64,000 bases of DNA from an uncultured Lentisphaerales bacterium (GCA_964599645.1 CAZRGQ010000001.1:11135-75134), one strand, 5' to 3'; positions 17,420 through 41,063 are shown, numbered from the stretch's first letter. Notes: generated by a model from the sequence alone, not told the origin. Made by a program: numbers and translations.

Positions 17420-17474
17420 CTCACTGTTGAACATGGGTATGTTTGCTGCTTTAATCAGGGAGAGAGTTTGAGTG

Positions 17475-17915
17475 ATGACGACGATCCACCACCAGAGAGC
17501 GCTAAAGCGCTGCCACAGACGGCTGTCCCGTTGGCACTCTTGTGCCGGTATGTCGTTGGTTGAAGTCGTCGTCTCTTCAGCTATTCTGGCTTTGGCCATC
17601 CTGACAATCTTTGCCACCTTCAGCTATGCGCGGCGCGCAGTAGTCCTGACTGAGGAGCGTCTGGCCTCGATGCATATTGCGCGTCATGCCATGGAGCGTC
17701 TGCGCAACTATCGCTATGACGATACCGAACTAAGCGTCGGCACCAGAAAGCGCCCGTTGCCGGGCTATCAGGAGAATCGTGGTTACTATAGCGTGACCGA
17801 AGACAAGGCCAACGGCGTGAAGACGATCAGGGTGGTGGTCGAGTGGGTCACCCCCTGGCAGGCGCAACGCGAGGTTGAACTATCGACGATGATGAGCAGG
17901 ACTTTTCACGAATGA
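17475..17915 (+). CDS. prepilin-type N-terminal cleavage/methylation domain protein (type IV minor pilin / T2SS pseudopilin-like)
   Basis: Basic leader, then AG|MSLVEVVVSSAILALAILTIF, the class III signal (G|F/M-x-L-x-E plus hydrophobic helix). Confidence 0.6.
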   Translation: MTTIHHQRALKRCHRRLSRWHSCAGMSLVEVVVSSAILALAILTIFATFSYARRAVVLTEERLASMHIARHAMERLRNYRYDDTELSVGTRKRPLPGYQENRGYYSVTEDKANGVKTIRVVVEWVTPWQAQREVELSTMMSRTFHE

Positions 17916-18424
17916 GAGGCGATTTTTTACAGAAGCGGGGTTATACCCTGACCGAAGTGATGGTAGCCGTGGCGCTCTCGGTGCTGATCGCAGCGGGTGC
18001 CTTCTCCCTCTTTTCGGCGATGTTCTCCTACTGGAAAGGGGTCAACTACCGTGTGCAGGCCGACAGTGATATCAACATGACCATGAGCCGGCTGGTGTAT
18101 GGGATGCCGGAGGCACCGGGGTTGCGTAATGTCGTCGGTGATACGGCCAGCCTTACGACGATGGCCAACAACAGCGGCTGGACGCTTAATTACTCCACGC
18201 CGGCCAGCGACGATACCTTTGAGCAGCGGAGCCTTGTGTGGTCACGAGCCGACAAGACGTTGACCTTTAATCCGGGCGCTGTTGTGGTAGGGCAGGATAT
18301 TGTTGAGGCGACAGCCAGTATCGACCGGAATCTCTTCTTGATCACTCTGCGCCTTGAGCGTAGCGAGGGGCGTTATACCGTGCGCCGTGAACTGGAGACA
18401 GAGATTCTATTCCGCAACTTTTAA
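17912..18424 (+). CDS. prepilin-type N-terminal cleavage/methylation domain protein (pseudopilin)
   Basis: KRG|YTLTEVMVAVALSVLIAAGAF is the canonical prepilin peptidase motif. Start codon overlaps the upstream stop. Confidence 0.7.
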   Translation: MRGDFLQKRGYTLTEVMVAVALSVLIAAGAFSLFSAMFSYWKGVNYRVQADSDINMTMSRLVYGMPEAPGLRNVVGDTASLTTMANNSGWTLNYSTPASDDTFEQRSLVWSRADKTLTFNPGAVVVGQDIVEATASIDRNLFLITLRLERSEGRYTVRRELETEILFRNF

Positions 18425-18431
18425 TGGGGAG

Positions 18432-19739
18432 ATGTTAGCCGTGAAGAGAGACAACAACGGCAGAAATGGCGCCACACTGGTGGTTGTAATCGGCATTATG
18501 CTGATCGGCGCACTCATCACGGCTTCGGTGATGGCGCGAGTTAACAGTCGGGTAAATCTGGCTTTCAGGCAGGTCCATCTCGAGGAGGCTTTTCATGTCG
18601 CCGAAGGCGGCGCTGAGCGCGCTGCCGCCACCATCACGGTGCTCGGCTATGGCAACGTGGGGACACGGACAATAAATGGCTCGTTGGGGCGTGGCCACTA
18701 CACTACCAAGATATCGAGTCAGTCACTCAGCGGCGGTTATCAGGTCGATATCATCTCAACCGGCACGGTCAACGGCGTCAGCCGCGTAGTCAAGATGTCG
18801 GGTGTGCAGCGCGTCAGTTGGGCCCGTTATGCCCTCTGGTACAACAAGCAGTCAGCGAAACTCTACATGATACCGGGCGAGAAATTCCATGGTCTCTTCT
18901 ACTCCAAGCCGCTGCTGCGCTTCAGCAACAAACTGCTCGCTGAAAATGGCCAGGTGCGCTTCTATGACCGTGCCTGGACGGGGCAGTCGACGATCCATAA
19001 AGAGTCGGGTGCTGATCCTGTTTTTGACCGTGGGCTGATTTATAGCTACCACTCCACCACAGAGGAGGATATGTTGCGGGATGTCGATTTCGCCACACTC
19101 AAGGCGCAGGCCAATAGTGATATGATCTTCAAGGGACCCACCACCATTGTGCTTAACGGCAAAAAAATGACGGTTACCAACACCGAAAAAGGGTATACCA
19201 ATAAACAGTTGGATATACCGAGTGACGGGCTGATCTATATTCAAAGCTACAACTCCAACTATACCACTTTTAATGGCGATTTGACGGTCAGCGCTCCCGA
19301 CGGCTTGAACGAGCGGGTTACATTGGTGGCTGAGAACGACATCCTGATTCCAGACCATATAAAATATAAAAATGATCCAAGCAAACCCGCCACAGCCAAC
19401 TCTACCGATGCTCTCGGTCTGATCGCCAAAAAGCATGTCAGAGTTACCAATGACTCGCCGAAAAATCTCTATATCTTTGCCCATATCATCTGCCAGAAGG
19501 GCGGCTTCGGGGTTGATAGCTATCAAACCGTCTCCGACAAGGGAACTTTGACGGTCTATGGCGGCATCGTCAATGATACGCGTAACGGAGTTGGTCAAGT
19601 CAGCACCGATAGCCGTGGCAGAGTAACACGCAACGGGTATGCCAAAGACTATATCTTTGACAAGCGCTTTAACAATACCCCGCCACCCTTCTATCCCGAG
19701 ATACCGGATCAACTGGAGTGGAGCCGTTGGGAGGGCTGA
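18432..19739 (+). CDS. PilX-N-like pilus assembly / minor pilin-associated protein (N-terminal hydrophobic helix, large extracellular domain)
   Basis: Start MLAVKRDNNGRNGATLVVVIGIMLIGALITASVMA resembles the PilX N-terminal domain. The track ORF begins earlier (18354), but ATG 18432 follows the upstream stop (18424). Confidence 0.5.
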   Translation: MLAVKRDNNGRNGATLVVVIGIMLIGALITASVMARVNSRVNLAFRQVHLEEAFHVAEGGAERAAATITVLGYGNVGTRTINGSLGRGHYTTKISSQSLSGGYQVDIISTGTVNGVSRVVKMSGVQRVSWARYALWYNKQSAKLYMIPGEKFHGLFYSKPLLRFSNKLLAENGQVRFYDRAWTGQSTIHKESGADPVFDRGLIYSYHSTTEEDMLRDVDFATLKAQANSDMIFKGPTTIVLNGKKMTVTNTEKGYTNKQLDIPSDGLIYIQSYNSNYTTFNGDLTVSAPDGLNERVTLVAENDILIPDHIKYKNDPSKPATANSTDALGLIAKKHVRVTNDSPKNLYIFAHIICQKGGFGVDSYQTVSDKGTLTVYGGIVNDTRNGVGQVSTDSRGRVTRNGYAKDYIFDKRFNNTPPPFYPEIPDQLEWSRWEG

Positions 19740-19744
19740 AGCGT

Positions 19745-20119
19745 ATGTCGTTTGAGTCACATCTGGTACGTCTCGTGCCTCTCACAGCTCTCCTCTTGCT
19801 GCTGGCCGGCTGCAGCGATGCCGGGCGTAAGCCCGGGGCACGAGCCACCTTTCCCAAACTCGATGAGGCGCCACCACCCGCCATGCCACGGCTGACGGCC
19901 CGGATGGCAGCAGAGACGGCCGCAACCGAAGTTGCGCCTCGCAGGGAGGTGGTCGCCAGCGATAGTTGGCTGACGCGTCAAGAGCAGAACGCGTCGCAGG
20001 TCAAGGCGGCCAGAGAGTATGCCGCCCGCATGGGAACCAACGATCCCTTCGCCATGAGTGAGGTCGAGCTGGCGGAGCTGGCCGAGTTTCTCAAGGATGG
20101 GACCGTCGAGGCTTATTAG
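19745..20119 (+). CDS. small lipoprotein, last gene of the pseudopilin operon
   Basis: MSFESHLVRLVPLTALLLLLAGCSD is a lipoprotein signal with LAGC lipobox. Convergent with, and 3-nt overlapping, the pglE-like gene stop. Confidence 0.55.
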   Translation: MSFESHLVRLVPLTALLLLLAGCSDAGRKPGARATFPKLDEAPPPAMPRLTARMAAETAATEVAPRREVVASDSWLTRQEQNASQVKAAREYAARMGTNDPFAMSEVELAELAEFLKDGTVEAY

Positions 20120-21255
20120 CCTGCCATGCAGTTGTGGCAGATGGCGACGATCCGGGCCAGCTCAGCCTCGCTCAGTCCCGCCCCTGAGGGGAGGCAGAGT
20201 CCCTGCCGGAAGAGCCGCTCTGCGACACTGCCGCCATAACATTTGACGCCGGCAAAGACCGGCTGCAGGTGCATCGGTTGCCAGACGGGGCGCGACTCGA
20301 TCGCCGCTTGCGCCAGCGCCAAACGGAGCTGCTCCGGGGTTACGCGGCTCTTGGTGGCGTCGATCACCATCACGGAGAGCCAGTGGTTGGGCTGGCTGTA
20401 GTCGGCCTGCGGCATCCAGGAGATAGCCTCGTTATCGGCAAAGGCGCTGCGGTAGTAGTCGGCAATCCGCTGCTTGCGGCGTAGAATCTCCGGCAGATGG
20501 GCGAGCTGTCCCACGCCGATGGCAGCCGAGATGTTGCTGAGGCGGTAGTTGAAGCCGAGCTCGCGGTGCTCATACCAGGGGGTGGCCTCACGCGCCTGTT
20601 GCGAACGCCAGGCAGCACGCGCTACCAGTTCGCTGTCGTGTGAAGCGAGCAGGCCGCCGCCGGAGGTGGTGATGATCTTGTTGCCGTTGAAGGAGTAGAC
20701 GGCCGCCAGGCCGGCAGCGCCGGCCATACGCCCTTTGTAGCGTGAACCGACCGCCTCGGCGGCGTCGATAATCAAGGGTACACCGTACTCTTGGCAGAGC
20801 TCTTCCAGCCGGTCGTAATCGCAGCACTCGCCATAGAGGTCGACGGCCACCACCGCCTTGGGCAATTTGTTGCTACGTGCCGCATCGCGCAGCGCCTCGG
20901 CCAGCAGCGCGGGATCGAGGCTCCAGTTGCTGCTGCCGGAGTCGATAAAAACCGGCTCGGCGCCGCGATGCACAGCCGGTGCAATCGAGGCGATAAAGGT
21001 GAGGTCGGAGCAGAAGACACGGTCGCCGCGCCCGAGATTCAACTCGTGAAAGAGGAGGTCGAGCGCCGCCGTGCCGCTGCTGAGGGCGGCCACGTGCGGG
21101 ATGCCGCAGAGCTCGCTGCAGCGCTGCTCAAAGAGGGTGACCATCGGCCCGGTCGGTGCGATGTAGTTGGAGGCCAGAGCGGCGGCGATCTGCCCGGCTT
21201 CATCACCACCCAGCCACGGCGGTGAGAGAAATATCCTGGGGGGGGGAGTCTGCAT
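20116..21255 (-). CDS. DegT/DnrJ/EryC1/StrS-family PLP-dependent sugar aminotransferase (PglE-like, UDP-4-keto-6-deoxy-GlcNAc aminotransferase type)
   Basis: Start MQTPPPRIFLSPPWLGGDE...NYIAPTGPMVTLFEQ closely parallels the Campylobacter PglE N-terminus MRFFLSPPHMGGNE...NYIAPLG...FEQ, and the DegT fold runs throughout. The upstream track ORF extension is GC noise. Confidence 0.75.
   Translation of the reverse strand: MQTPPPRIFLSPPWLGGDEAGQIAAALASNYIAPTGPMVTLFEQRCSELCGIPHVAALSSGTAALDLLFHELNLGRGDRVFCSDLTFIASIAPAVHRGAEPVFIDSGSSNWSLDPALLAEALRDAARSNKLPKAVVAVDLYGECCDYDRLEELCQEYGVPLIIDAAEAVGSRYKGRMAGAAGLAAVYSFNGNKIITTSGGGLLASHDSELVARAAWRSQQAREATPWYEHRELGFNYRLSNISAAIGVGQLAHLPEILRRKQRIADYYRSAFADNEAISWMPQADYSQPNHWLSVMVIDATKSRVTPEQLRLALAQAAIESRPVWQPMHLQPVFAGVKCYGGSVAERLFRQGLCLPSGAGLSEAELARIVAICHNCMAG
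21238..21246. repeat. homopolymeric C9 tract (G9 on the + strand) encoding PPP at codons 4-6 of the pglE-like gene; candidate phase-variation tract
   Basis: Nine consecutive G at 21238-21246, confirmed by the protein reading T-P-P-P-R. Confidence 0.85.
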
Positions 21256-21860
21256 CAGCGTAACCTCACCAGTCGCTCGCTGTCGGCCAGGTCGCGCAGC
21301 GCCACAGCGCCGGCACCCAGCGTGGCCCAGGCACCGATCACGACTCCCGGTATGGTGACGGCATTGGAGCCGAGGAGCGCGCCGCTCCCGACGCGGCACC
21401 CGCCCGAGAGACGTACGCCGGGGCAGAGTTGGGCGCCATCGGCCACCCTGCAGTCGTGGCCGACGCTGGTGTGGTGGTTGACGATAACATGCTCAGCCAG
21501 CTCTGTACGGCAGGAGATCACGACGCCGGCTGCCACCAGTGTGCCGGCGCCGAGCACGACATCGGGGGCGATGATGGCGCTGGGATCGATGATCGATACC
21601 GCACGCCAGCCGAGAGCAGTGGCGCGCGCAGCCACTGCGAGGCGTCTGCGGTTGTCGCCGATCGCAACGTGAAAGGCAACCGCCGGCGGCAGAGTGGCGG
21701 CCGCAGCCTCAGGCTTGCCGAGGAGTCGCCTGCCTGCCAGAGTGCCGCTCGCCTTGTCGGGTGCGTCGTCACAGAGGCCCACGACCTCCATGCCGGCCCG
21801 CCCGGCCAGCCAGGCCACCTCGACACCCAAACCACCTGCACCGATAATTATCACCTGCAT
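21255..21860 (-). CDS. hexapeptide-repeat sugar N-acetyltransferase, NeuD/PglD family
   Basis: N-terminal Rossmann-like MQVIIIGAGGLGVEVA followed by a left-handed beta-helix repeat region (VIVNHHTSVGHDCRVADGAQLCPGVRLSGGCRVGSGALLGSNAVTIPGVVIG). ATGA overlap with pglE-like. Confidence 0.7.
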   Translation of the reverse strand: MQVIIIGAGGLGVEVAWLAGRAGMEVVGLCDDAPDKASGTLAGRRLLGKPEAAAATLPPAVAFHVAIGDNRRRLAVAARATALGWRAVSIIDPSAIIAPDVVLGAGTLVAAGVVISCRTELAEHVIVNHHTSVGHDCRVADGAQLCPGVRLSGGCRVGSGALLGSNAVTIPGVVIGAWATLGAGAVALRDLADSERLVRLR

Positions 21861-21864
21861 CGTC

Positions 21865-22431
21865 TCACCCCGTAAACTCTTCCATGGTGGCCGCTGTGGC
21901 CGCCGCAATCCCCTCACGCCGTACTACCTTGATGACCGTCAGCCATAAAATCTTCAGATCGAGCCGGAACGAGCGGTGCGTCACATACCAGACATCGAGC
22001 GCCAGCCGTTCCGGCCATGTCAGCAAGTTGCGCCCCTTTACCTGCGCCCAGCCGGTAATGCCGGGGCGCACCTCATGGCGGCGGCGCTGCTCGCTGGAGT
22101 AGCGTGGCAGATAACGCACCGGCAGGGGGCGCGGACCGACCAGCGACATCTCGCCGCGCAAGACGTTGAGCAACTGCGGCAGCTCATCCAGACTGCTGCT
22201 GCGCAGCCAGCCTCCGAAGCGGGTCAGGCGTTCACTGTCGCTGCCTTCTCCAAGGCGCATGGTACGGAATTTGAGCAGCATAAAGGTGGCGTCGCGCCAG
22301 CCGATACGCTCTTGGCGAAAGAGCACCGGGCGTCCCTCCACGCCCCAAACCAGCAGCGCCAGTAGCGCCAACAACGGCAGCCAGAGCGGCAGGGTCACGA
22401 CTACCAGCAGCAGATCGAAGAGGCGCTTCAC
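21865..22431 (-). CDS. small monotopic phosphoglycosyl transferase (bacterial sugar transferase, PglC/WbaP-C-terminal type)
   Basis: MKRLFDLLLVVVTLPLWLPLLALLALLVWGVEGRPVLFRQERIG...FRTMR...SLDELPQLLNVLRGEMSLVGPRPLP, the signature of initiating PGTs. Confidence 0.8.
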   Translation of the reverse strand: MKRLFDLLLVVVTLPLWLPLLALLALLVWGVEGRPVLFRQERIGWRDATFMLLKFRTMRLGEGSDSERLTRFGGWLRSSSLDELPQLLNVLRGEMSLVGPRPLPVRYLPRYSSEQRRRHEVRPGITGWAQVKGRNLLTWPERLALDVWYVTHRSFRLDLKILWLTVIKVVRREGIAAATAATMEEFTG

Positions 22432-24035
22432 CGCACGATCCTCCGGTAGAGTACGCCTTCGCGTTGCCAGGAGTCGACCTGCTCCAGCAGCCAGGCGGGG
22501 GTGTAACTCTCCCCCGGCGAGACGACGTAGATGGCCGCCCCGCCTTGCAACGCCTGCTGCAGCGCGCTGCGTTCTGCCGCCTCATTCCAAGGGGTGACAA
22601 GATGCCACTCTCTGTCATAGGGCAGGAGACCGGCGGCGCCGGCCGCCAGCAGAGCGCCAGCCGCCGTGGCATCAGCCACCAGCCACTCTCCGTGCTCCAT
22701 CTGGTCGACGACCGCAGTGATGAAGCGGGCTGCCGACTGCTCATGCTGCTGCCACGGTTGCGCCCAGTAGGCGACTTCGTTGCGTCCCGGCAGGGCACGG
22801 GCACGTGTCAGGTCGATACCGGTCCGGGCAATGGCCGCTGGCATCAGGAGCGGTATGCCAAGCTGTGTCAGCAGCGCGAGGCTGAGGAGGAGTGCGCCAC
22901 GCTGCAGGGCGCGGCGGCCGCTGCCGAGCCAGGCGGGGAGCCCCAGACCGGCCCAGAGCGCCAGCAGGCCAAGCGTCGGCAGGATAAAGGTGGCCTGATC
23001 AGGCACAAAGTAGCGTAGCCAGAAGAGTGCATGCAGCAGGGTGGCTGCCAGCAGCAGGCGGGTGGCGGCGTCAGTGCGATAACGACGCAGCCCGAGCGCG
23101 GCCATGAACGGCAGCGGGTTCAGCAGACTGAGTGCGGCCAGGCCCCAGTTGAAACCGACCTGACGCCAGTTTCGCGGCCAGAGGCCGACCACATAGCTCT
23201 GATAGCGATCACCGAAGAGGAGCCCTTGCAGCGTCTTGAGCAGCGCGCCGGAGGCGTGCCACTCCTGCAGCGCCAGCAGCAGCAGCGGAGCCGCTGCCAC
23301 CAGCCAGACACCTGCCAGCAGCCAGGGCAGAGAGCGGTGTCTGCTCAGGGCGGCCGTGGCGGGTACGGCATCACGCCGGCGCCTGACCTGATCTATTACA
23401 GCGAGCGCCAGATAGAGCGCCAGGTTGAGCAGCGCCAGATTGTGGATGGCGAAGTGGAGTCCGTTGAGCGCCGCCAGCGCCACCAGCCAGCGCCGGCTGC
23501 TCTCCCGTGGCGTCACTGTCGTGGTTGTCGCGGCTGCCACCGCTCTGGCCGCAGTGCGGCTCTGGTAGTAGCGCCAGAGGAGATAGAGCTCACCCAGCAT
23601 GGCCGCCAACGACCAGGTATAGACCTCGGCCATAGTTGCGAGCCACCAGCACATCTGGGTACCGCCCAGCAGCACCATCGCCAGCAGGGCGCTGCCAAGG
23701 TGACCCGTGACAGCCAGCAGCAGCCGTCCCAGCAAGGCCAACGCCACCACCATGCCGAGGCCACTGAAGAGGTTGATGGCATAGAGGCGCAAGCCGAAGG
23801 GCCAGAGGGCGGCGAAGTTGCGGGCCGCTGCAATGTAGAGCGGGTGGGCACGAGCCAGTCCGCCATGCCAGATGTAGTCACCGATCAACACCCGATATTG
23901 GAATTCGCCGCTATCCTGCCAGGCCACCCCACGCTGGGCGGTGGCGGCGTAGAGCAGCAGAAAGAGGGCCACCGGCAGCCAGAAGAGCAGCCGTTGCCAT
24001 CCGTCAAGCTGCTGTCTCTGCTGTGCACTACTCAT
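22428..24035 (-). CDS. DUF2723-family polytopic membrane protein (GT-C-fold, TMEM260/protein O-mannosyltransferase-like)
   Basis: WQDSGEFQYRVL...GLARAHPLY resembles the DUF2723 signature (W-x-DSGE ... HPPGYPLY). At least 10 predicted TM helices and a C-terminal soluble domain. Start MSSAQQ at 24035 gives ATGA overlap with the holA stop. Confidence 0.55.
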   Translation of the reverse strand: MSSAQQRQQLDGWQRLLFWLPVALFLLLYAATAQRGVAWQDSGEFQYRVLIGDYIWHGGLARAHPLYIAAARNFAALWPFGLRLYAINLFSGLGMVVALALLGRLLLAVTGHLGSALLAMVLLGGTQMCWWLATMAEVYTWSLAAMLGELYLLWRYYQSRTAARAVAAATTTTVTPRESSRRWLVALAALNGLHFAIHNLALLNLALYLALAVIDQVRRRRDAVPATAALSRHRSLPWLLAGVWLVAAAPLLLLALQEWHASGALLKTLQGLLFGDRYQSYVVGLWPRNWRQVGFNWGLAALSLLNPLPFMAALGLRRYRTDAATRLLLAATLLHALFWLRYFVPDQATFILPTLGLLALWAGLGLPAWLGSGRRALQRGALLLSLALLTQLGIPLLMPAAIARTGIDLTRARALPGRNEVAYWAQPWQQHEQSAARFITAVVDQMEHGEWLVADATAAGALLAAGAAGLLPYDREWHLVTPWNEAAERSALQQALQGGAAIYVVSPGESYTPAWLLEQVDSWQREGVLYRRIVR

Positions 24036-25162
24036 CTGGTTGCGGCACCCTGGCGTGGCGGTTGACGTCCGATAGCCCGCAGGAGGTAGGTTTCGGTAAG
24101 CCACTCCTGCGGCAGCGAGGAGGAGACGAGCTTCTCGCGCAACTCGATAATCAGGTGGCGCGCCACACGCAGTTCACGCAGCCGCCAGGTGGCCGCCTGG
24201 GTCACCAGTTTGCCGAGACGGAAGGCGGGCCAGCGCCGCATATCCTTCTCCTGGCCATCGAACCACGCTGTAATCTCCGGCGGCATGGTGCCCCAACGCA
24301 GGCCGCCATAGCCTTCAGAGGTGGCCCATTTGCGGTCGAGCAGTTCACGCACCGTCAGGAGTTCGCTGACGCGTGTATCGAGCGAGGTGGCGAGGCGGAT
24401 GGGGCTTTCTGCTTGCGACAACTGCACTCGCAGCTCTTTGATGAAGTCGGCGCTGCGCCGCAGCGCAAAGGAGTCGAGCAGGTCCCACACCTCGGCGGTG
24501 GCGCCGCTGGCGACGATATCGGTAATATCCTTAACCGTTACCTTGGTGCGTTCACCGCAGTAGCAACGCAGTTTCTCCAGCTCGCTGACGATGGTGCGGG
24601 TGTCGTAGCCGGTGCGGTCGAGGAGGGCCTGGAGTACGCTGGAGTCGAGCTGGAGGCCGGTCTGCGGCAGCCAGCCTTCGATAAAGGTCTTGGCACGAGC
24701 CTCATGCTGTCGCGGTTTCAGATTGTTGCCGAAATCTTTGATCTCGCAGTGAGGCGCATTGAAGGCCTTAAAGAGGGCGGTGGCGCGGTTGATTTTGAAG
24801 GTGGTCAGAATCAGGCGCTGTCCCTCGGGGAGTCCCTGCTTGATCAGGTTGGTCAGGTCGGCCACGAGGCTGGTAGTGGTGGCGCTGCGGCTGATGCGGT
24901 CGATCGAGAGGAAGGAGGGCTCACGGAGCCAGACCAGCTTGTTGCCGCCGCCGAAGAGGCCGTCGGTCGTCAGGGCCTCACAGCAGGCGCGGATGGCACG
25001 GCTGCTCTCATCGACTGTTTCAACTCGTGCATCGACCGTTTCCAGCCCGAAATCACGCTCGGCGGGCGGCACGAAGGCATCGATCAAGCGGCGCGCCTCC
25101 AACAACACCTGGAAGTCGTCGTCGCCACAGATCAGATAGCACGATTTGGCGGGAGTAGTCAT
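24032..25162 (-). CDS. holA: DNA polymerase III delta subunit
   Basis: N-terminus ...YLICGDDDFQVLLEARRLIDAF..., length and overall pattern are typical of HolA. Confidence 0.65.
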   Translation of the reverse strand: MTTPAKSCYLICGDDDFQVLLEARRLIDAFVPPAERDFGLETVDARVETVDESSRAIRACCEALTTDGLFGGGNKLVWLREPSFLSIDRISRSATTTSLVADLTNLIKQGLPEGQRLILTTFKINRATALFKAFNAPHCEIKDFGNNLKPRQHEARAKTFIEGWLPQTGLQLDSSVLQALLDRTGYDTRTIVSELEKLRCYCGERTKVTVKDITDIVASGATAEVWDLLDSFALRRSADFIKELRVQLSQAESPIRLATSLDTRVSELLTVRELLDRKWATSEGYGGLRWGTMPPEITAWFDGQEKDMRRWPAFRLGKLVTQAATWRLRELRVARHLIIELREKLVSSSLPQEWLTETYLLRAIGRQPPRQGAATR

Positions 25163-28053
25163 CCTTGATGCTGTTTATGGGGTGGCGGGTTGTGCAGTAC
25201 CATGCGGGCGTGGCGCGCAAAGTGGCCACGGATATCGTGGCTGTAGAGGCTGAGGCGCTGCGCCGCAAGCCCCTCGTGATCGCCGCAGCGGTAGAGGGCG
25301 CGGGCGAGGTAGAGTTCGCGCAGCGCCTCATTGCGCGTGGTATTGTCGATGGTGCTGGCGGGGATGTTGGCCAGTTCGGCACGCAGCGAGGTCCAGGCGT
25401 GGTTGGAGAGTTCGGGCTGTTGCAACTGCGCTGCCAAGGCGACGGCAAAGTCGTTATCGGGAAAGGTTTCGCAGTAGATGGCCACGGCACGGATATGGGA
25501 GAGGGCCGGATCGCACCCCAGCTCTCCGATCTTCCGCAGGACGGCTGCCTTTGCCTGACCAACGCGCGAGAGAGCCAGCAGGATGATGATGTCGTCGAGC
25601 CGGCTGGCGCTGCGCCCGAACTGATGCATGCCGCAGTAGTTCCAGCCCTCGTCCCAGTCGCTGCTGTTGAGCTTGTCGATCAGGAGCGCAGCGGCTGTGG
25701 TATCGCCGATGATGGCGAGCATCTGGGCGGCACGCAGCTTGAGTTCGGGATCGTTCTCAATCGCAAAGCGTTGACGCAGCAGCAGCCGTGAAGGTTCGGG
25801 ATCGCTCAGCAGGGCGGCCAGTTCGGCATGGATGGCAAGCGAGCCGTTGGCCGCCGAACGCAGGATGGCATGTGGCACGGTGGTGGTGTCGCTGTGCAGC
25901 AGCGTCGTCTGGGGCAGGATGCCGCAGGCGACGAGGCGGCGTTGCAGTTCACGGATGTTGATGCGCCGCACCTCGGAACGGTGGCTGAGCGCCAGCGTGG
26001 CGGCCAGACCGGCGGCGTAGGCCTGGTTTTGCACATCGGCCTGCATGCGCAGCACCGGCATGACGTCGCGTTCTGCGCTGATGCCGAGGCCGGTCACCAG
26101 CAGACCCGCCAGCCCCTTGGGCTGCAGAGCCCGTAGCGGCAGCCAGGCGTCGAGCGGCGTACGGTCGGGCGGGAGTGCATGGAAGATGGGTGTCACAGTG
26201 AATCCATGACTATCAAAATTGCTGCGGCTGAGGCAGATGGCGTCCGACCAGGTATGGCCGCCGTAGACAGCCAGGGTGGTGACGGTGACGTCGCCGACGA
26301 TCTGGCGGCGTTCGCGGGTATCGACGAGCGGCGCGATCTCGAAGTGGTCGCTGAAACGGCGGCGGGCGACAACGAAGGCACGGGTGACATCGTCGAGATC
26401 AGAGTCGTCGATGAAGGTGTAGTCGGTATTGTGGGTGGCGGGTATGAATGGGCGTGAAGGCAGCCCGCTACCTTGAATGGCGAGATCGTAGTCGCTGACG
26501 ACGCGGCACTCGGCGCCTGCTGCCGCAGCGACATCGGCGTTGCCGGTGGCGTCGATAACAAAGCCGGCGCGTACCACACCGCGTCCCCAGGGAGTGTTGA
26601 CGATAACGCCCCCAACGCGATCATTGGCCTTGGTCACGCCCGATACCAGCGCCTGGTACCAGACCGTGCCCCCTGCCGCCAGCAGCTCGCGGCGCAGCCA
26701 CTCGCTCTTGTGGTTGGCGGGCCAGACCCGAGGGTTGAAGCTCTCGTTATCGCCCCACATCTCACGCAGTCCGGCGGTAACTTCGGCGGTAAAGCCTTCG
26801 CGGTTGCCGTAGTAGTAGCAGGTGATGGCGCCGATGGTGCCGACGCCGCCGAGGTCATGTTGTGCTTCGAGCAATAGCACTTTGGCGCCATTGCGGGCGG
26901 CGGCAATGGCCGCCGCAGCGCCGGCAGTACCACCGCCGGCCACCACGACATCGAAGTCGCCTAGTTGCGGCAGTCCGCCCGATTCGAGAAGCAGATGGTT
27001 CTCTGTCGGGCGCGGATGGAGTGGCGGCTCGCAGAGGAGCGGGTCGCGCAGACCGGCCCAGACGGGGTGGCACTCGGCAATCTCGACCGGCTGGCCGGTC
27101 TTGATGGCGGCACCAAGGCGTTCGCCCAACAGCAGCATATTGGCCGGTTGGGTGAGGTGTGCCACATCTTTGCGCACGATGGCCGCTGCAGAACCCAAAA
27201 CAGAGAGTCCTTTGAGTGAGGTATGGAAGGCCTCCAGCGGCAGGGTGGCCGCACTGCACCAGTGATGTAACGGGGTATCGTCCAGATAGTCGGGCGGCAA
27301 CCAGTCGGCCCGTTCACTGTACCAGACAGCCTCCCTGTGCCAGGTACGGCTACGCAACTGCGCTTCAGCCGCTGCCACGGCCGCCGGCGTCAGACCGGTC
27401 AGCGGTTGTGGCAGCATATAACGCCACGCCTTGCGTACGGCCTGCTGTCCATGCTCGGTTACAGCCACCTCGCCCAGCGGTTGGGCCAGCAGCATGGCAT
27501 CATCCTGCCGGAGCTGTGTCAGGTCGTGCTCCGGACCGATCACCACACGCGAAAAGACGATCTCCTCATCGGTTATCCAGGGGGTGAAGGCGACACCGGC
27601 CAGACGGGCGCAGAGGGCCGCCGGGGTGACATCGATCACCTGGCGCGCCGTCACCACAAAGGGGCCGCTGCGGCTGGTAAAGAGGAGTCCGGCCAGCTCG
27701 CCGTTGGCATCGCAGAGGAGGCTGGCCGGCGTGCAGCCGAAGCGGAAGTTGACGTTGGCCTCGATCAGGGCATTGTCGAGCTGCGCCTTGACCCGGGCCG
27801 GCCGCAGAAAGGTGCGGCGGCTGCCATCCTTGCGGGCCAGGATGGTGCGCGCCAGCGCTGTCTCCAGCGGCAGCGAAGCGTCGGGCCAGAGGCGTCCCGT
27901 AGCGCAGATATCTTCACCGGCATAGGGTTCGGCCGCCCCCAGGAAGACCTTGCGGCCGGCGCGGGCGGCAGCCGTGGCAGCCGCCACACCGCCGCTGGCG
28001 CCGCCTACGACAATTAAATCTGCCTGTGCATAAACTGGAACTGAAAGATGCAT
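25159..28053 (-). CDS. large FAD-dependent oxidoreductase with two tandem FAD-binding domains and a C-terminal HEAT-like repeat region
   Basis: Two dinucleotide-binding motifs: ADLIVVGGASGGVAAATAAARAGRKV near the N-terminus, and DVVVAGGGTAGAAAAIAAARNGAKVLLLE mid-protein. 964 aa. Confidence 0.6.
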   Translation of the reverse strand: MHLSVPVYAQADLIVVGGASGGVAAATAAARAGRKVFLGAAEPYAGEDICATGRLWPDASLPLETALARTILARKDGSRRTFLRPARVKAQLDNALIEANVNFRFGCTPASLLCDANGELAGLLFTSRSGPFVVTARQVIDVTPAALCARLAGVAFTPWITDEEIVFSRVVIGPEHDLTQLRQDDAMLLAQPLGEVAVTEHGQQAVRKAWRYMLPQPLTGLTPAAVAAAEAQLRSRTWHREAVWYSERADWLPPDYLDDTPLHHWCSAATLPLEAFHTSLKGLSVLGSAAAIVRKDVAHLTQPANMLLLGERLGAAIKTGQPVEIAECHPVWAGLRDPLLCEPPLHPRPTENHLLLESGGLPQLGDFDVVVAGGGTAGAAAAIAAARNGAKVLLLEAQHDLGGVGTIGAITCYYYGNREGFTAEVTAGLREMWGDNESFNPRVWPANHKSEWLRRELLAAGGTVWYQALVSGVTKANDRVGGVIVNTPWGRGVVRAGFVIDATGNADVAAAAGAECRVVSDYDLAIQGSGLPSRPFIPATHNTDYTFIDDSDLDDVTRAFVVARRRFSDHFEIAPLVDTRERRQIVGDVTVTTLAVYGGHTWSDAICLSRSNFDSHGFTVTPIFHALPPDRTPLDAWLPLRALQPKGLAGLLVTGLGISAERDVMPVLRMQADVQNQAYAAGLAATLALSHRSEVRRINIRELQRRLVACGILPQTTLLHSDTTTVPHAILRSAANGSLAIHAELAALLSDPEPSRLLLRQRFAIENDPELKLRAAQMLAIIGDTTAAALLIDKLNSSDWDEGWNYCGMHQFGRSASRLDDIIILLALSRVGQAKAAVLRKIGELGCDPALSHIRAVAIYCETFPDNDFAVALAAQLQQPELSNHAWTSLRAELANIPASTIDNTTRNEALRELYLARALYRCGDHEGLAAQRLSLYSHDIRGHFARHARMVLHNPPPHKQHQG

Positions 28054-28265
28054 CGTCTCTAACCTCTGGTTGTCGCCTTAGAGTATGCTGCCAGCGGCAG
28101 GTTTTTGCAAGAGCAAGATTGTTGTGCAGAGAGTTCCGAGTGCGATCCACAATAGTGGATACGCACCAGAAATTCAGAAGCCAGACCCCAATATTCGACA
28201 TGAACAAAAAGGACGCTGCCCGCACGGCATGCCTCCTCTGCTCTCTCCCTCCTCATCCGCTAAGC

Positions 28266-28502
28266 TCAGGGCCCTGTTGCAAGTGCCGCACTCAGATAGC
28301 GCCGTCTAAGTTCCTCTATGATAAAGCGGATGTTATTCCAACCATCAACCGCCTCTTCATAAACCTTTTCAACAGTTGCAGCCTCCATCTCAGGCGTTAC
28401 CAGCGGGACAAATGAGTCGAGTTGATCAATAACCGGCTGCAGCATCTCACGATAGAATACAGGTGTAAGGCTGGTTTGCTCCGGCAGCGATATAGCCTTC
28501 AT
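28266..28502 (-). CDS. small hypothetical protein (78 aa, MKAISLPEQ...), or the C-terminal part of a frameshifted larger gene
   Basis: Protein-like composition begins only at the internal ATG (28502); upstream of it the frame is R/W/C-rich noise. Confidence 0.35.
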   Translation of the reverse strand: MKAISLPEQTSLTPVFYREMLQPVIDQLDSFVPLVTPEMEAATVEKVYEEAVDGWNNIRFIIEELRRRYLSAALATGP

Positions 28503-29040
28503 AGCTGCCAGCCCCCAGGAGCCGGGCCTCCACCTCAGCGGCCCGTTCGTCGTAGGCATCCAAACGCAGGTGAATGCCGTTGGGATCGCAGAGCAGTGAA
28601 ATCTCAGTCGGTTTGTAGTCACGACTCTCTGCCCCATCTGTCATGATGCCGGTGCCACGGTCGCCTGTGCCGACGTCTGTCACCAGAAAGTCCATATTGC
28701 CACCGAATTTACGGTCAAAAAGTTGACGTTGCGGTGGATTTGCCAAGCTGCCCCAACTGTGTAATCCGCTGATCTCCTCATTAACGTATGTGACGTGATA
28801 GAGTTTTCTCTCCTCCGCCACGTAGAGGCTGTCGCGCAGTGCGGCCAGCTGATGTACTGCTGCATCCTGCCGTGCCATCAGCGCTGCCGCACCAACCGAG
28901 TTCAAACGCTCAACTCGTATCTTTTCACCTATCTCATGTTTTTTGGCCAGCAACTCCTCTTGCGCCAGCAGGCGCCCGGCCGCCCCCTCACCGCTCTCTC
29001 CCTCTTGCCATTGACGGAACATCACGGCCAGCAACTCCAT
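28447..29040 (-). CDS. hypothetical protein (198 aa from MELLAVMFRQ...); alternatively the middle segment of a frameshifted gene
   Basis: Good coding composition. The track ORF starts on TTG at 29100, overlapping the upstream gene by 32 nt in another frame. Confidence 0.4.
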   Translation of the reverse strand: MELLAVMFRQWQEGESGEGAAGRLLAQEELLAKKHEIGEKIRVERLNSVGAAALMARQDAAVHQLAALRDSLYVAEERKLYHVTYVNEEISGLHSWGSLANPPQRQLFDRKFGGNMDFLVTDVGTGDRGTGIMTDGAESRDYKPTEISLLCDPNGIHLRLDAYDERAAEVEARLLGAGSYEGYIAAGANQPYTCILS

Positions 29041-31786: not shown

Positions 31787-31866
31787 TTTAACCGTGGCAA
31801 ACATGCCCCTGTATCAGGCAAGCCTGTCAGAAGAAACCGATGCAGGCAAATTGAATGGAGTTTAAC

Positions 31867-33876
31867 ATGATGTTTGTCCGTAGTTTGGCCGATTTGCCCG
31901 ACGCGCTCTTTAGCGGTACGGGGCGCTGGCGTCCTTTTGCGACGGCCAGCGACCGGAGAGCTTGGGAGTCGTTGCCACAGGAGGTGGTCGATAAGGTGGT
32001 GTGTGCCGCACATGAAATTGTGGGGACTCCCTGGGCGACGCTGCCAGCCGGCGATATGATGGCTTTCAGGCGGGATGGTAATCGCAGGCGTTACGAAAAG
32101 GCCTATTTTGAGCGGCGTCGACGTGTGGCAACACTGGTTGTGGCCGAGTGTTGCCGCAACCAGGGCGAGTTTCTCGATGAGCTTATCAATGGACTCTGGC
32201 TGATCTGCGAAGAGAGTTCCTGGGCCGTTCCGGCGCATCTGCCTGATGTGCCGGGGCATGGCGGCTTGCCTGAGCGTGATAAACCGGTGGTCGATCTCTT
32301 CGCCGCCGATACCGCGAGTCTGCTGGCGTGGAGCAACTACCTGCTGGAAGATCAGTTACGCAGCCTCTCGACGGTTGTACCTGAACGCATTTATGCGGAG
32401 TTGGCGCAACGGCTTTTTGATCCGGCCGTTGAGCGCGATGACTATTGGTGGATGGGGTTAGCCACGCCACCCAGGAAATTGAACAACTGGACCCCCTGGA
32501 TTGTCTCCAACTGGCTGGGGGCGCTCCTCTTGAGCGACCGTCACGAGGCCAGGCGTATCGCCGGACTCTACAAGGCGGTGGCCTGCCTCGATCGCTACAT
32601 GCTGCAGATGCCGCTGGATGGTGGTTGTGACGAGGGGCCGAGCTATTGGGGGCGGGCGGGCGCCTCGCTCTTTGATGCGCTGGAGATTCTGCTGAGCGCA
32701 TCGGAAGGCAGATTGAACTTCTACGACAAACCGCAAATCAAGGCATTGGGGAGCTACCTGGCCAAGGTGCATATCGCCGGCCCCTGGTTTGTCAATTTTG
32801 CCGACGGCCCGGCACGTGTTGATGTCTGGGCGCCGGGGGTCTATGGCTACGGTGTGCGTACCGGAGATGAGGCTCTGATGCGACTCGGAGTCGCCTTGCA
32901 GCAGCGTCACTACCCTCCTCTGCCGTGGGCAAAGTATCACGACCTCTTCCGTACACTGCAGAGTCTCTTCACCTTCAGGATTGCACCCACGGCGACGGCG
33001 TCAGCGCCGGCCATCAGAGATGCATGGTTTCCCGAGACTGAGGTGATGACGGCCAGAGAGTCCCAAGGTGAGGACAAAGGGTGGTTTGTGGCGGCCAAGG
33101 GCGGACACAACAATGAGCGCCATAATCACAACGACATCGGCTCTTTCATCGTCTATCGCGACGGCCAACCGCTGCTGGTTGACGCAGGGGTGGGAGTCTA
33201 TACGCGCCAGACTTTCAGCCCTGAACGCTACTCGATCTGGACGATGCGGTCTGATTACCACAACTATCTGCCAGCCTTTGCTGGAGTTGTGCAGTCGCCC
33301 GGTGTAGAGTTCGCCGCCCGCAAGGTGGCTTATACAGCCAACGAAGAGCGCGCAACGCTCTCGCTGGAGCTTGCGGCAGCCTATCCGCCCGAGGCACAAG
33401 TGGCGGAGTGGCAGCGCAAAATCTCGTTAAACCGCAGCCGTGGCGTCGTCGTAAGCGACTCCTATCGACTGAACGGAGAGGTGGGTGAGATCACCTTTTC
33501 ACTGCTGACACCCTCCAGGATTGAGTTGGTGGGAGCAGGGTGCGCGATTCTAAGCGGGCGCCCATTGCCGCAAGGCGCAGAGAGCGGCAGCGGTCGGCTG
33601 GAGTTTGAGATACCGGGAGTCACGCTTGCGGTCGAAGAGGTGGTGACGGAAGACGATGAACGCCTGAGCGCCGTCTGGGGAGCCTCGCTCTACCGGCTGG
33701 TGGTACGGGTGGCAAAACCGGCACGTACAGGGGAGTGGCTGTTGTCGATAAGGCAACCTGCTCACAGCCCCCGGCTACTGCACGGTGGGGCTGACGGTGA
33801 GCGATGGCAGCGCAACGGCTGTCACGACAGCAAACAACCTGCTCTACGTCGTGCCAGCACAGCTCTACGTCTCTGA
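31867..33876 (+). CDS. heparinase II/III-like family protein (polysaccharide-lyase-like), apparently cytoplasmic; C-terminal end uncertain
   Basis: Heparinase II/III-like overall pattern. RBS GGAG sits 6 nt before ATG 31867. No signal peptide. The last ~30 codons before the stop look like read-through. Confidence 0.45.
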   Translation: MMFVRSLADLPDALFSGTGRWRPFATASDRRAWESLPQEVVDKVVCAAHEIVGTPWATLPAGDMMAFRRDGNRRRYEKAYFERRRRVATLVVAECCRNQGEFLDELINGLWLICEESSWAVPAHLPDVPGHGGLPERDKPVVDLFAADTASLLAWSNYLLEDQLRSLSTVVPERIYAELAQRLFDPAVERDDYWWMGLATPPRKLNNWTPWIVSNWLGALLLSDRHEARRIAGLYKAVACLDRYMLQMPLDGGCDEGPSYWGRAGASLFDALEILLSASEGRLNFYDKPQIKALGSYLAKVHIAGPWFVNFADGPARVDVWAPGVYGYGVRTGDEALMRLGVALQQRHYPPLPWAKYHDLFRTLQSLFTFRIAPTATASAPAIRDAWFPETEVMTARESQGEDKGWFVAAKGGHNNERHNHNDIGSFIVYRDGQPLLVDAGVGVYTRQTFSPERYSIWTMRSDYHNYLPAFAGVVQSPGVEFAARKVAYTANEERATLSLELAAAYPPEAQVAEWQRKISLNRSRGVVVSDSYRLNGEVGEITFSLLTPSRIELVGAGCAILSGRPLPQGAESGSGRLEFEIPGVTLAVEEVVTEDDERLSAVWGASLYRLVVRVAKPARTGEWLLSIRQPAHSPRLLHGGADGERWQRNGCHDSKQPALRRASTALRL

Positions 33877-36058
33877 CGGCAATAGCACCGCAGAGTTTCC
33901 CTACGCCACACCAACCACGGCAGCGGCCACGATTGCAGCGGCCATTGAGGCGGCTCGTGATGGTGCCGCAGTTGCGGTGCTGCCCGGTGACTACCTGCTG
34001 GATGAGTCGCTGGAGATCGCCAAGGCGATCGAGGTCTACACCACCGCCGGCCCCGATGCCACCCGACTCTACAAGACCAAAACAGACGTCGTGATGTTGC
34101 GCCTGGGGCATCGGGAAGCTCTCTTCCACAGCTTTAATTTCGATGGCGGACGTCCCAACGTCGTCTACCTTTGGGATAACGGTGGCACCGTCAGCAACTG
34201 CTATATCCAGAACGGCTTCTACACCGCCGGCAGCGGCGTCGGGGTACGCGCCCGGGCTGGTCTGGTGACCCACTGCCGCATTAACAATAACAGTTCGGAT
34301 CGTGAAGGCAAAGGCGTCGGTGTCTATCTGGAGGGACCGGCCACAGTTGAGAACTGCCTGATCTACGCCAACCGGGGTACCCATGCCAATCTCAATGGCG
34401 GCGTCTACCTGGAAAAAGGCGCCACGATTCGCAACTGCACCATCGCCAAGAATCAGGCGCCCCACGGCGGTGGCGTCTATGCCGTGGCTGGCGCGACCAT
34501 CGAAAACTGCATTATCTACGGCAACGATGCCACCGCCCTGCACGGCGAGGGCGACCCCGACTGGTATGGCAGCGCCGCCACCTTCCGTAACAACTGTACA
34601 CCGATAGCTGTCGGCAGCGACTGCATTACCGCCGTGCCGGGCTTTATCGACTTTGCCGGTAACGACTATCGCCTCAGCCCCGCTTCACCCTGCGTTGACG
34701 CCGGAGTCGAAGTGCCCCATTTTGTGGCAGCGACCGACTTCTATGGCAACCCGCGACTGCTGGGCAGTGGCATCGATATCGGTGCCCATGAGGTGGAGAT
34801 TACCGCTGCCGGATGTGGCATCATTACCGATGTTGAGCAGGTGCTGGAGGGGACGGAGGTGGTGTTGACGGGAACAGCCTACGGCTTTGACGAGGGCGCT
34901 ACGTTGACCTACGAGTGGGACTTTGACGGCGATGGGGTGGCCGACGCCTTTGGCAGAGTGGTAACCAACAGCTTCCCGCCCGGCTACGTCACGGTGGGGC
35001 TGAGCGTCAGCGATGGCATTGCGACTGCCACCGTTGCAGAGGAGAACCTGCTGCTGGTGAGTCCGTTAAATCTCTACGTGGTGCCCGAGAACCCCAATGC
35101 CAGTCACCCCTACAGCAGTTGGGAGACGGCAGCCGATGATATCCAGGAGGCGATCGACACCGCCTTCGATGGCTCAACAGTCTGGCTCGGCAGTGGTCTG
35201 CACAGGCCGACGGCGACGGTTAACCTCGCCAAGGGGGTGGTGCTGCAGGGAACCAACACGGCTACTACGTTGATTACGCCAACGTCCGCAACCCGTATCC
35301 TCTATGTCTCGCATCCTGCGGCAGTGGTACAACGTCTGACATTGACCGGCAGCCAGAGCGGCGTCAAACTCGATCGTGCCGGCGGACGGCTGTCAGAGCT
35401 GGTGATCACCAACAACAGCTATAGTGCCGGTGGACTCTACGGTCAAGGTATCTGGATCTATGCCGGTACGGTAGAGCGCTGCATGGTAGTCGACAACCAG
35501 TTGCGCGGCCAATCTTACACGGCCGGAATTCGGATTGAGGCGCAGGTGGCACCCGAAGACCCGCCGGTATTGATCGAAAACTGCCTTGTGGCTCACAACG
35601 GCAGTTCACATGCGAGCGGCGAAACGGCCGGTATTTACGCCAGACAGGGGGTGGTGCGCAACTGCACGGTGGTGGGCAACACAACGGCTAACGGCAGCTA
35701 TGGTGCCGGGATTCATGCCGAGGCGGCGGCGACCATCGAGAACTGCATTGTGGTCGATAATCTCAACAGCGCCAAGGCCGCCCTGAACAACTGGGGCGGG
35801 ACGAGCGCCTCCTTCAGTTACACCTGCAGCGAGCCCGACCTGGGCGGCACAGGTTGCTTCAGCGCCGATCCCCTCTTTGTCGATGCAGGCAACTACCGCC
35901 TGCAGGCGGTCTCGCCGTGCGTCGATGCGGGGCTGACGCTCGAAGCGATGTACCTGCAATGCGACTTGGCAGGCAAGCCGCGTGTGCGGCAGCGAGGCGT
36001 TGATCTCGGCGCATACGAATATCTGCCACCGGCAGCGACGGTGCTACTGCTAAGGTAG
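33785..36058 (+). CDS. right-handed parallel beta-helix repeat protein with PKD-like domain, internally duplicated (~350-aa module x2)
   Basis: Module 1: VGLTVSDGSATAV...NLLYVVPAQLYVSDGNS...YRLSPASPCVDAGVE...GNPRLLGSGIDIGAHE. Module 2: YEWDFDGDGVAD...VGLSVSDGIATATV...NLLLVSPLNLYVVPENP...YRLQAVSPCVDAGLT...GKPRVRQRGVDLGAYE. GTG start, no signal peptide. Confidence 0.55.
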   Translation: MGLTVSDGSATAVTTANNLLYVVPAQLYVSDGNSTAEFPYATPTTAAATIAAAIEAARDGAAVAVLPGDYLLDESLEIAKAIEVYTTAGPDATRLYKTKTDVVMLRLGHREALFHSFNFDGGRPNVVYLWDNGGTVSNCYIQNGFYTAGSGVGVRARAGLVTHCRINNNSSDREGKGVGVYLEGPATVENCLIYANRGTHANLNGGVYLEKGATIRNCTIAKNQAPHGGGVYAVAGATIENCIIYGNDATALHGEGDPDWYGSAATFRNNCTPIAVGSDCITAVPGFIDFAGNDYRLSPASPCVDAGVEVPHFVAATDFYGNPRLLGSGIDIGAHEVEITAAGCGIITDVEQVLEGTEVVLTGTAYGFDEGATLTYEWDFDGDGVADAFGRVVTNSFPPGYVTVGLSVSDGIATATVAEENLLLVSPLNLYVVPENPNASHPYSSWETAADDIQEAIDTAFDGSTVWLGSGLHRPTATVNLAKGVVLQGTNTATTLITPTSATRILYVSHPAAVVQRLTLTGSQSGVKLDRAGGRLSELVITNNSYSAGGLYGQGIWIYAGTVERCMVVDNQLRGQSYTAGIRIEAQVAPEDPPVLIENCLVAHNGSSHASGETAGIYARQGVVRNCTVVGNTTANGSYGAGIHAEAAATIENCIVVDNLNSAKAALNNWGGTSASFSYTCSEPDLGGTGCFSADPLFVDAGNYRLQAVSPCVDAGLTLEAMYLQCDLAGKPRVRQRGVDLGAYEYLPPAATVLLLR

Positions 36059-41032: not shown

Positions 41033-41063
41033 CAACAAATCCGTAAACGACGCTGCCCTGAAG

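Follow-up and report, generated by a model that had tools for sequence, protein, structure and literature searches.

Several described systems resemble parts of the gene cluster reported here. The N-glycosylation locus of Campylobacter jejuni encodes the dehydratase PglF, the sugar aminotransferase PglE, the acetyltransferase PglD and the phosphoglycosyl transferase (PGT) PglC, together with the PglA/J/H/I glycosyltransferases, the PglK flippase and PglB, a membrane enzyme of glycosyltransferase fold class C (GT-C). In the ArnB/A/C/D/T pathway for lipid A aminoarabinose, a DegT aminotransferase, an N-acyl step, carrier loading and a GT-C occur in one operon. Mycobacterial arabinogalactan synthesis (WecA, the decaprenylphosphoryl-5-phosphoribose (DPPR) synthase UbiA/Rv3806c, and AftA/AftB/Emb) combines a diphosphate primer, a monophosphate donor and a periplasmic GT-C. 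Further points of comparison are the exopolysaccharide (EPS) loci with exosortases and PEP-CTERM proteins (Haft's EpsH), the B. subtilis EpsC/N/M/L system, in which a PglC-type PGT primes a bacillosamine-type sugar (PMC10653937), and human TMEM260 (CAZy GT117), a protein O-mannosyltransferase that modifies IPT domains (PMC10214176). Here we report a cluster of PglC-, PglD- and PglE-like genes with the gene for a GT-C membrane protein, called MEM below, in a 64,000-nucleotide (nt) stretch of an uncultured Lentisphaerales bacterium (GCA_964599645.1 CAZRGQ010000001.1:11135-75134; hereafter the window). We put at roughly three in four the probability that MEM and the three enzymes form one lipid-carrier pathway, in which MEM would act in the periplasm on the undecaprenyl diphosphate (Und-PP)-linked sugar primed by PglC. 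By analogy, this conserved, uncharacterised system would work like a lipid-carrier pathway of the pgl, Arn or arabinogalactan type.

The genes belong to a closely packed run of six on the minus strand, at 20116-28053 (aa, amino acids; TM, transmembrane helices):

25159-28053, minus strand: flavin adenine dinucleotide (FAD)-dependent oxidoreductase, 964 aa, PF12831 217.7 bits; heads the packed run
24032-25162, minus strand: holA (DNA polymerase III delta), 376 aa, TIGR01128 135 bits (cut-off 80)
22428-24035, minus strand: MEM, 11-TM GT-C membrane protein, 535 aa, PF11028 18.5 bits
23901-23921, minus strand: codons for W39-Q40-D41-S42-G43-E44-F45, the start of the first periplasmic loop of MEM
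22431-22820, minus strand: periplasmic C-terminal region of MEM, residues 406-535, a conserved stretch followed by a small alpha/beta domain
21865-22431, minus strand: PglC-like small monotopic PGT, 188 aa, PF02397 200 bits
21255-21860, minus strand: PglD/NeuD-type sugar N-acetyltransferase, 201 aa, TIGR03570 185.1 bits (cut-off 160.8)
20116-21255, minus strand: PglE-like pyridoxal phosphate-dependent sugar 4-aminotransferase (DegT), 379 aa, PF01041 283 bits

The gene calls agree with independent ones on metagenomic contigs bearing the identical protein. An earlier note on this DNA had listed holA, the membrane protein, the PGT, the acetyltransferase and the DegT aminotransferase, and hidden Markov model scores and gene calls place all of them on the minus strand as described.

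The assignment of the last three to PglC/D/E-type enzymes also held, both in the matches to PF02397, TIGR03570 and PF01041 and in the closest solved relatives. For the aminotransferase, whose start is the ATG at 21255, the closest solved relative is C. jejuni PglE (1o61, 267 bits; 4ztc, 264 bits), in line with the earlier observation that its N-terminus mirrors PglE; its top NCBIfam match is the LegC family (TIGR04181, 317 bits), under that model's cut-off of 420. The acetyltransferase passes TIGR03570 (NeuD/PglB/VioB) and matches PglD_N (43.7 bits) and Hexapep (56.8 bits). Its closest solved relatives are the acetyltransferase domain of Neisseria PglB (4m98, 90 bits), then PerB, VioB and C. 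jejuni PglD. The alignment of the PglC-like enzyme with Campylobacter concisus PglC (8g1n, 166 bits) spans its whole length, and the Asp-Glu dyad (SLDELPQL) and the PRP motif (GPRPL) that mark small monotopic PGTs are kept. A fingerprint has been published for PglC enzymes that use UDP-N,N'-diacetylbacillosamine (UDP-diNAcBac), consisting of a five-residue aromatic box and a GLLLP loop motif (Anderson et al. 2023, PMC10186338). The aromatic box is kept at four positions (Y106, Y110, W138 and F184) and has Leu at the fifth, the counterpart of C. concisus F154; on alignment with 8g1n the GLLLP loop is deleted, and the C-terminal salt bridge E117-K196 seems to be charge-swapped (R105/E183).

Judged by these relationships, the product of the three enzymes is probably a 2,4-diacetamido-2,4,6-trideoxyhexose of the bacillosamine type. 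The LegC-family match raised the possibility of a legionaminic acid pathway. We reject this reading because genes of the NeuB/NeuC/NeuA type (LegI/G/F) are absent from the operon and from the annotated related loci, and because the enzymes are coupled to a PGT, which has no role in that pathway. As a minor observation, tblastn matches to pglE are split near query residue 174 by 160-330 nt in five related loci (L008, L012, L013, L050 and L054), which suggests an insertion in the aminotransferase of some relatives; the product in L085 is 411 aa long, against 379 aa in the window.

The main evidence for a common pathway is conserved gene linkage. A scan of one genome per species gave 80 related loci (numbered L), 76 of them with usable flanks; linkage was scored by tblastn with the window proteins as same-strand matches within 7 kb of a MEM homologue. 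At least one pgl-type gene is linked in this way in 42 of the 76 loci, so that the association of the GT-C with sugar genes, proposed earlier for this sequence, is conserved. The Kiritimatiellia ortholog clade has 37 members, of which about 25 show the linkage. The most frequent order is pglC-pglD-MEM-pglE, with gaps of 2-135 nt around MEM, and at least five gene orders keep the genes together; the others include MEM-C-D-E (the window), C-D-E-F-X-MEM, E-F-X-MEM and MEM-C-ATPgrasp-...-E, where X is an exosortase, and one close relative has PGT-GT4-...-MEM. A membrane-anchored PglF-type dehydratase (CoA_binding_3 plus Polysacc_synt_2) follows in about 20 loci, and extended Kiritimatiellia loci add GT4, GT87, an AftB-like protein and a WecA-like transferase. 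Since the linkage between GT-C and sugar genes is kept across many genomes and in several orders, these genes very probably serve one pathway. It suggests that Kiritimatiellota and neighbouring groups, bacteria that are abundant in guts, sediments and wastewater and are biochemically almost unstudied, have a route of envelope glycosylation not described before.

Packing in the window is tight. The earlier note had described ATGA-type coupling of five genes; three of its four junctions do overlap (ATGA at holA/MEM; GTGA at MEM/pglC, where the GTG start of pglC overlaps the MEM stop; and TGATG at pglD/pglE, with 1 nt common to the pglD stop and the pglE ATG), and the fourth, pglC/pglD, has a 4-nt spacer in place of an overlap. 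The run is also longer than five genes, as the FAD oxidoreductase gene is ATGA-coupled upstream of holA. The next gene downstream is convergent, and the run therefore ends with the aminotransferase gene. A promoter and terminator scan of 19600-28600 returned intragenic consensus matches only and gave no usable operon boundaries.

Such packing could bring together genes with independent functions. MEM would then draw on a housekeeping polyprenyl-phosphate sugar, either as a TMEM260/PMT-like protein O-glycosyltransferase or as some other glycosyltransferase of the envelope, and PglC/D/E would feed a separate O-antigen, capsule or EPS pathway with its own ligase. In its favour, holA and the FAD oxidoreductase gene share the same overlapping run, so that co-membership here need not mean shared function; about one third of the MEM orthologues are unlinked and sit amid housekeeping genes; and diNAcBac-type priming occurs in ordinary EPS pathways, for example through B. 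subtilis EpsL (PMC10653937). However, the linkage outlasts at least five gene orders and extends to clades that share only about 26% identity with MEM and in part bear the labels of other phyla; MEM often lies between pglD and pglE, or overlaps pglC; neither holA nor the FAD gene is conserved beside it; and no Wzx, Wzy or WaaL gene was found in the operon or in the minimal related loci. We therefore consider independent functions improbable. The unlinked orthologues fall into two or three nested subclades of a neighbour-joining tree, one of which comes largely from the rumen; this pattern suggests secondary loss of linkage.

The earlier note had listed holA in the coupled run. By tblastn, homologues of holA and of the FAD oxidoreductase each occur near MEM in 0 of the 80 related loci, on which ground we reject both as functional partners; by this comparison they are incidental neighbours outside the glycosylation module. 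In the nearest relatives (L086 6135-6644, L001, L087 and L032) a conserved 169-aa open reading frame (ORF) lies directly upstream of MEM. It is 69-79% identical between loci, has no Pfam or NCBIfam match and no TM segment, and is missing from the window, where holA holds that position.

MEM had been identified as a DUF2723 protein. By itself it scores 18.5 bits (E 0.0018) against PF11028 (TMEM260-like/DUF2723), under the Pfam gathering cut-off of 24.2, and no NCBIfam model matched it. What stands is the wider assignment, given that PF11028 is matched at E <= 0.01 by 28 of 38 aligned MEM homologues (best 2.9e-11) and that the fold is GT-C. A distant homologue (L079) reaches 27.9 bits; PMT_2 is matched by 4 of the 38, and these two are the only Pfam families matched within the MEM family. 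On profile scores, then, the PF11028/TMEM260 placement of MEM holds at the family level only. A search of 5.8 billion proteins found 143 MEM homologues, mostly 37-50% identical, of which those with a named organism are Kiritimatiellia metagenome-assembled genomes. A profile search of 1.84 billion cluster representatives returned 427 at E <= 1e-30 and 6402 at E <= 1e-3.

The AlphaFold2 model of MEM is confident (predicted local distance difference test, pLDDT, 90.8; predicted template-modelling score, pTM, 0.92). In a Foldseek comparison with the PDB its 17 best matches are all GT-C enzymes; ArnT comes first, and AftB and AftA are among the structural matches. The predicted structure has the polytopic fold with a conserved N-terminal TM module that characterises GT-C class A. 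No STT3/PglB/AglB character was found in MEM: there is no STT3 Pfam match (PF02516) and no WWDYG motif, and the fold resembles STT3B and AglB no more than it resembles PMT and ArnT. Sequence and fold together support MEM as a GT-C glycosyltransferase on a divergent bacterial branch of the TMEM260-like/DUF2723 lineage. As classified here it is a non-STT3 GT-C, a sub-threshold, family-level member of PF11028 that does not have the tetratricopeptide repeat (TPR) domain of TMEM260.

From its helix positions and the positive-inside rule, MEM has 11 TM helices, its N-terminus in and its C-terminus out. Every invariant residue falls on the periplasmic side: W39-Q40-D41-S42-G43, H64-P65, E137, H198, R341-Y342 and D346-Q347, and further along R413, P416, R418, E420, Y423-W424 and P427-W428. 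The first five are invariant in 38 of 38 homologues, and D41 is kept in 10 of 10 distant-clade sequences checked. D41 supplies the acidic residue of the first extracytoplasmic loop expected of GT-C class A and is the putative catalytic Asp, judging by its position, which corresponds to Asp52 of TMEM260 and Asp77 of PMT1 (PMC10214176) by position, not by superposition. The C-terminal region carries the conserved stretch R413-x2-P416-x-R418-x-E420...Y423-W424...P427-W428; for the C-terminal 130 residues, a small alpha/beta arrangement and not TPR, no significant structural relative was found.

MEM and TMEM260 thus share family-level PF11028 homology, 11 TM helices with a luminal or periplasmic C-terminal domain, and a conserved Asp that opens the first extracytoplasmic loop. 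They differ in that MEM is sub-threshold in Pfam, that its C-terminal domain is small alpha/beta rather than TPR, and that its genomic partners suggest an Und-PP-linked amino sugar instead of dolichyl phosphate mannose and a protein acceptor. In the full-text literature searched, DUF2723 appeared in the TMEM260 paper alone, where 'distant homologs in bacteria' are mentioned (PMC10214176); the earlier statement that bacterial DUF2723 proteins have no described function agrees with the literature searched. The conserved context gives these bacterial relatives of TMEM260 (GT117/DUF2723) a concrete hypothesis that can be tested in the laboratory. A canonical DUF2723 protein of 1099 aa with TPR (L084 21182-21527) occurs in the same 6.1-Mb genome as a linked MEM orthologue. 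It adjoins hexokinase and TilS and no sugar-nucleotide genes, and the pgl linkage therefore appears to be specific to the MEM subfamily.

These data establish which genes are present, the GT-C fold and topology of MEM and the conservation of the linkage; from them we infer the identity of the sugar, the action of MEM on the PglC product and the roles of donor and acceptor, as follows. A PglF-type 4,6-dehydratase would form UDP-4-keto-6-deoxy-N-acetylhexosamine; its gene would lie elsewhere in the genome. Such a gene is adjacent in about 20 related loci; consistent with the earlier note that none is adjacent here, none occurs within the whole 64-kb window. PglE would then aminate and PglD N-acetylate this intermediate to a UDP-2,4-diacetamido-2,4,6-trideoxyhexose of the bacillosamine type, and PglC would transfer the sugar-1-phosphate onto undecaprenyl phosphate. 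After a flippase had moved the lipid-linked sugar across the membrane, MEM would act on it at the periplasmic face, toward which D41, H64, E137, H198, R341, D346, R413 and R418 are predicted to point.

The parallel with the C. jejuni locus lies in PglE and PglC as closest solved relatives, in a PglD-type enzyme and a GT-C in the same operon and, among relatives of the window locus, in the membrane-anchored PglF-type dehydratase. Unlike that locus, the window operon has no PglA/J/H/I glycosyltransferases and no PglK flippase, its GT-C is not STT3/PglB, and its PGT has no GLLLP motif. With Arn the cluster shares the combination of DegT aminotransferase, N-acyl step, carrier loading and GT-C in one operon, as well as ArnT as the top Foldseek match of MEM. 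The two differ in carrier chemistry: ArnC is a GT2 that makes an undecaprenyl phosphate-sugar, whereas here a PGT would make an Und-PP-sugar, and no equivalent of ArnA or ArnD is present.

What MEM would do to the lipid-linked sugar can be read in two ways. We tentatively prefer elongation, in which MEM would add a sugar from a polyprenyl-monophosphate donor to the PglC-primed Und-PP-sugar, and favour it slightly over transfer of the kind catalysed by an oligosaccharyltransferase (OST). The model for elongation comes from the ALG mannosyltransferases, which act on dolichyl diphosphate-linked glycans, and from AftA, which acts on decaprenyl diphosphate-linked galactan. To our knowledge, all characterised GT-C enzymes of this fold class, STT3/PglB/AglB excepted, use polyprenyl-phosphate monosaccharides. 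This norm supports elongation, and the top named structural matches of MEM agree with it, as does the homology of MEM, which lies on the PMT/TMEM260 side of the clan.

More distant relatives also bear on the choice. A clade about 26% identical to MEM, from bins labelled Anaerolineales or Phycisphaerae, has a short-chain dehydrogenase/reductase (SDR), a UbiA-family gene, MEM, PglC, a PylC-like ATP-grasp ligase and Glycos_transf_4 in a row, with a DegT aminotransferase a further 4-5 kb or so on. In these distant clades the ATP-grasp ligase occupies the place of PglD, and PglC begins 0-9 nt after MEM in most loci. In L072 and L076-L079, MEM stands immediately between the UbiA-family gene on its upstream side and PglC on its downstream side. 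This UbiA gene (8615-9889 in L072) scores 231.5 bits against NF008977, decaprenyl-phosphate phosphoribosyltransferase (cut-off 234), and in the two loci checked, L072 and L079, MEM is the sole polytopic protein of GT-C size. One Phycisphaerae locus has PglF, SDR, ATP-grasp, HAD and MEM consecutively. The periplasmic invariants are identical in clades paired with a PGT alone, with a PGT and UbiA, or with GT2. A row of UbiA, MEM and PglC around the same active site points to a monophosphate donor, with the PglC product as acceptor, at least as strongly as to OST-like transfer.

This arrangement recalls arabinogalactan synthesis, with its diphosphate primer, monophosphate donor and periplasmic GT-C: the distant clade has a DPPR-synthase-like UbiA gene, MEM and PglC consecutively, AftB and AftA are structural matches, and AftB-like and GT87 proteins occur in extended Kiritimatiellia loci. 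It departs from it in that neither the window nor the Kiritimatiellia loci have a UbiA-like gene, the primer enzyme is a monotopic PglC and not WecA, and the organisms are not Actinobacteria.

Short MEM paralogues (372 aa in L069) are found in gut Kiritimatiellaeota (L057, L063 and L065-L069; for example L069 9959-11889). They keep the active-site residues, and the C-terminal domain is absent, as seen in L069. A GT2 gene directly follows each, with spacing from a 9-nt overlap to a 133-nt gap. It was considered as a polyprenyl-phosphate glycosyltransferase, but comparison with PDB sequences and NCBIfam identified it as a generic GT2 only, and the argument from a switch of partners is accordingly weak for the short-paralogue clade.

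If transfer is OST- or ligase-like instead, the donor of MEM would be the Und-PP-linked diNAcBac-like sugar, or a short glycan built on it, and a final acceptor, either Ser/Thr/Asn of a protein or an envelope lipid or glycan, would be glycosylated with release of Und-PP. We regard this as doubtful, although it calls for the fewest unlinked genes. In the minimal loci (the window, L007, L017, L031 and L038) MEM is the sole membrane transferase beside PglC/D/E, and there is neither a second lipid-sugar synthase nor another ligase. The other known case of a GT-C coupled genetically to a PglC-type PGT is Campylobacter PglB/PglC, and a diphosphate-metal group could be bound by several of the invariant Arg and acidic residues on the periplasmic side. 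On the other side stand the missing STT3 match and WWDYG motif in MEM; the monophosphate donors used by characterised members of the PMT_2/TMEM260 side, TMEM260 included; and the sister clades, where a DPPR-synthase-like UbiA gene or a GT2 accompanies an identical set of active-site residues. For glycoengineering, a GT-C with Und-PP-bacillosamine as its substrate could be of use.

Several results weigh against a single pathway with MEM as elongating enzyme. The diNAcBac fingerprint of the PglC-like enzyme is partial only, and the unlinked third of the orthologues has been described above. The operon has no flippase and no final ligase, so that elongation calls for a larger set of unlinked genes than OST-like transfer does. 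Neither the window nor the Kiritimatiellia loci have a polyprenyl-phosphate-sugar synthase (GT2 or UbiA) linked to MEM. The relatives that supply the UbiA evidence are only about 26% identical to MEM, and the generic GT2 beside the short paralogues has no polyprenyl-phosphate glycosyltransferase assignment.

Exosortases occur beside the module in many relatives, which suggested another role. In 22 loci a gene within 7 kb of MEM, usually directly after pglE or pglF, encodes an EpsH-EpsI fusion exosortase that belongs to no classified type; GT4 is found beside the module as well, as in exosortase/PEP-CTERM EPS loci. Two PEP-CTERM proteins are encoded inside the MEM-pglC operon of L072 (7601-8401 and 13209-14228; PF07589 30.9 and 22 bits), and PEP-CTERM ORFs are also near MEM in L074 and L078. 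The module might therefore make and install a lipid-linked amino sugar to which an exosortase attaches cleaved PEP-CTERM proteins, a bacterial counterpart of glycosylphosphatidylinositol (GPI) anchoring and of the T9SS (type IX secretion system) 'linking sugar'. In a variant, MEM would present the sugar like PIG-U, the GT-C-fold subunit of GPI transamidase; the idea overlays either transfer model. Where the PylC-like ATP-grasp replaces PglD, an amino acid would be joined to the sugar and offer its free amine as the nucleophile; such an aminoacylated amino sugar would resemble the T9SS linking sugar. In their work on the latter, Veith et al. 2020 raise, as a speculation, the conjugation of proteins by exosortases to a sugar modified with an amino acid (PMC7468200).

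We nevertheless judge this role for the module to be very improbable. Neither an exosortase nor a PEP-CTERM-like ORF was found in the 64-kb window, no PEP-CTERM-like C-termini were found in the Kiritimatiellia loci searched, and PglD would cap the 4-amine, the possible nucleophile. Exosortase genes generally lie near EPS loci, so adjacency may be generic. The full-text literature searched contained no link between bacillosamine and exosortases and no description of a DUF2723-type GT-C as a component of an exosortase/PEP-CTERM system or of the B. subtilis Eps system. The association bears on what it is that exosortases attach their substrates to.

Three or four pseudopilin-like genes on the plus strand (17472-19739) converge on the end of the aminotransferase gene; they were recognised by the prepilin N-terminal motif and by a weak N_methyl match in the matching contig. 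Pilin glycosylation was considered on their account and found no support, the genes being convergent and absent from the two related loci annotated for this, L084 and L085.

Elsewhere the window carries mainly housekeeping genes (mraW, purD, a SpoU methylase, yggS, FtsX and the pseudopilins), along with some genes for polysaccharide degradation. A second GT-C, proposed earlier, matches PMT_2 at 32 bits and has about 10 TM; its coordinates are 40983-42833 (plus strand) and not 41064-42833. Upstream of it are an amidohydrolase, a phosphodiesterase-like protein and two ORFs with no Pfam match, and a protein with a GDSL-lipase domain follows. The SDR noted from 63124 onward belongs to the generic SDR epimerases, and its gene runs off the end of the window. 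At 31855-36058 (plus strand) lie genes for a right-handed beta-helix/PKD protein and a heparinase II/III-like protein, as expected for a polysaccharide-degrading organism of the Kiritimatiellota type. Between about 50000 and 58200 the GC content is 0.47-0.52, down from about 0.62; the specificity subunit of a type I restriction-modification system (Methylase_S, 51689-52861) lies there beside large ORFs at 53381-55015 and 55046-58192, and the region is probably a horizontally acquired island.

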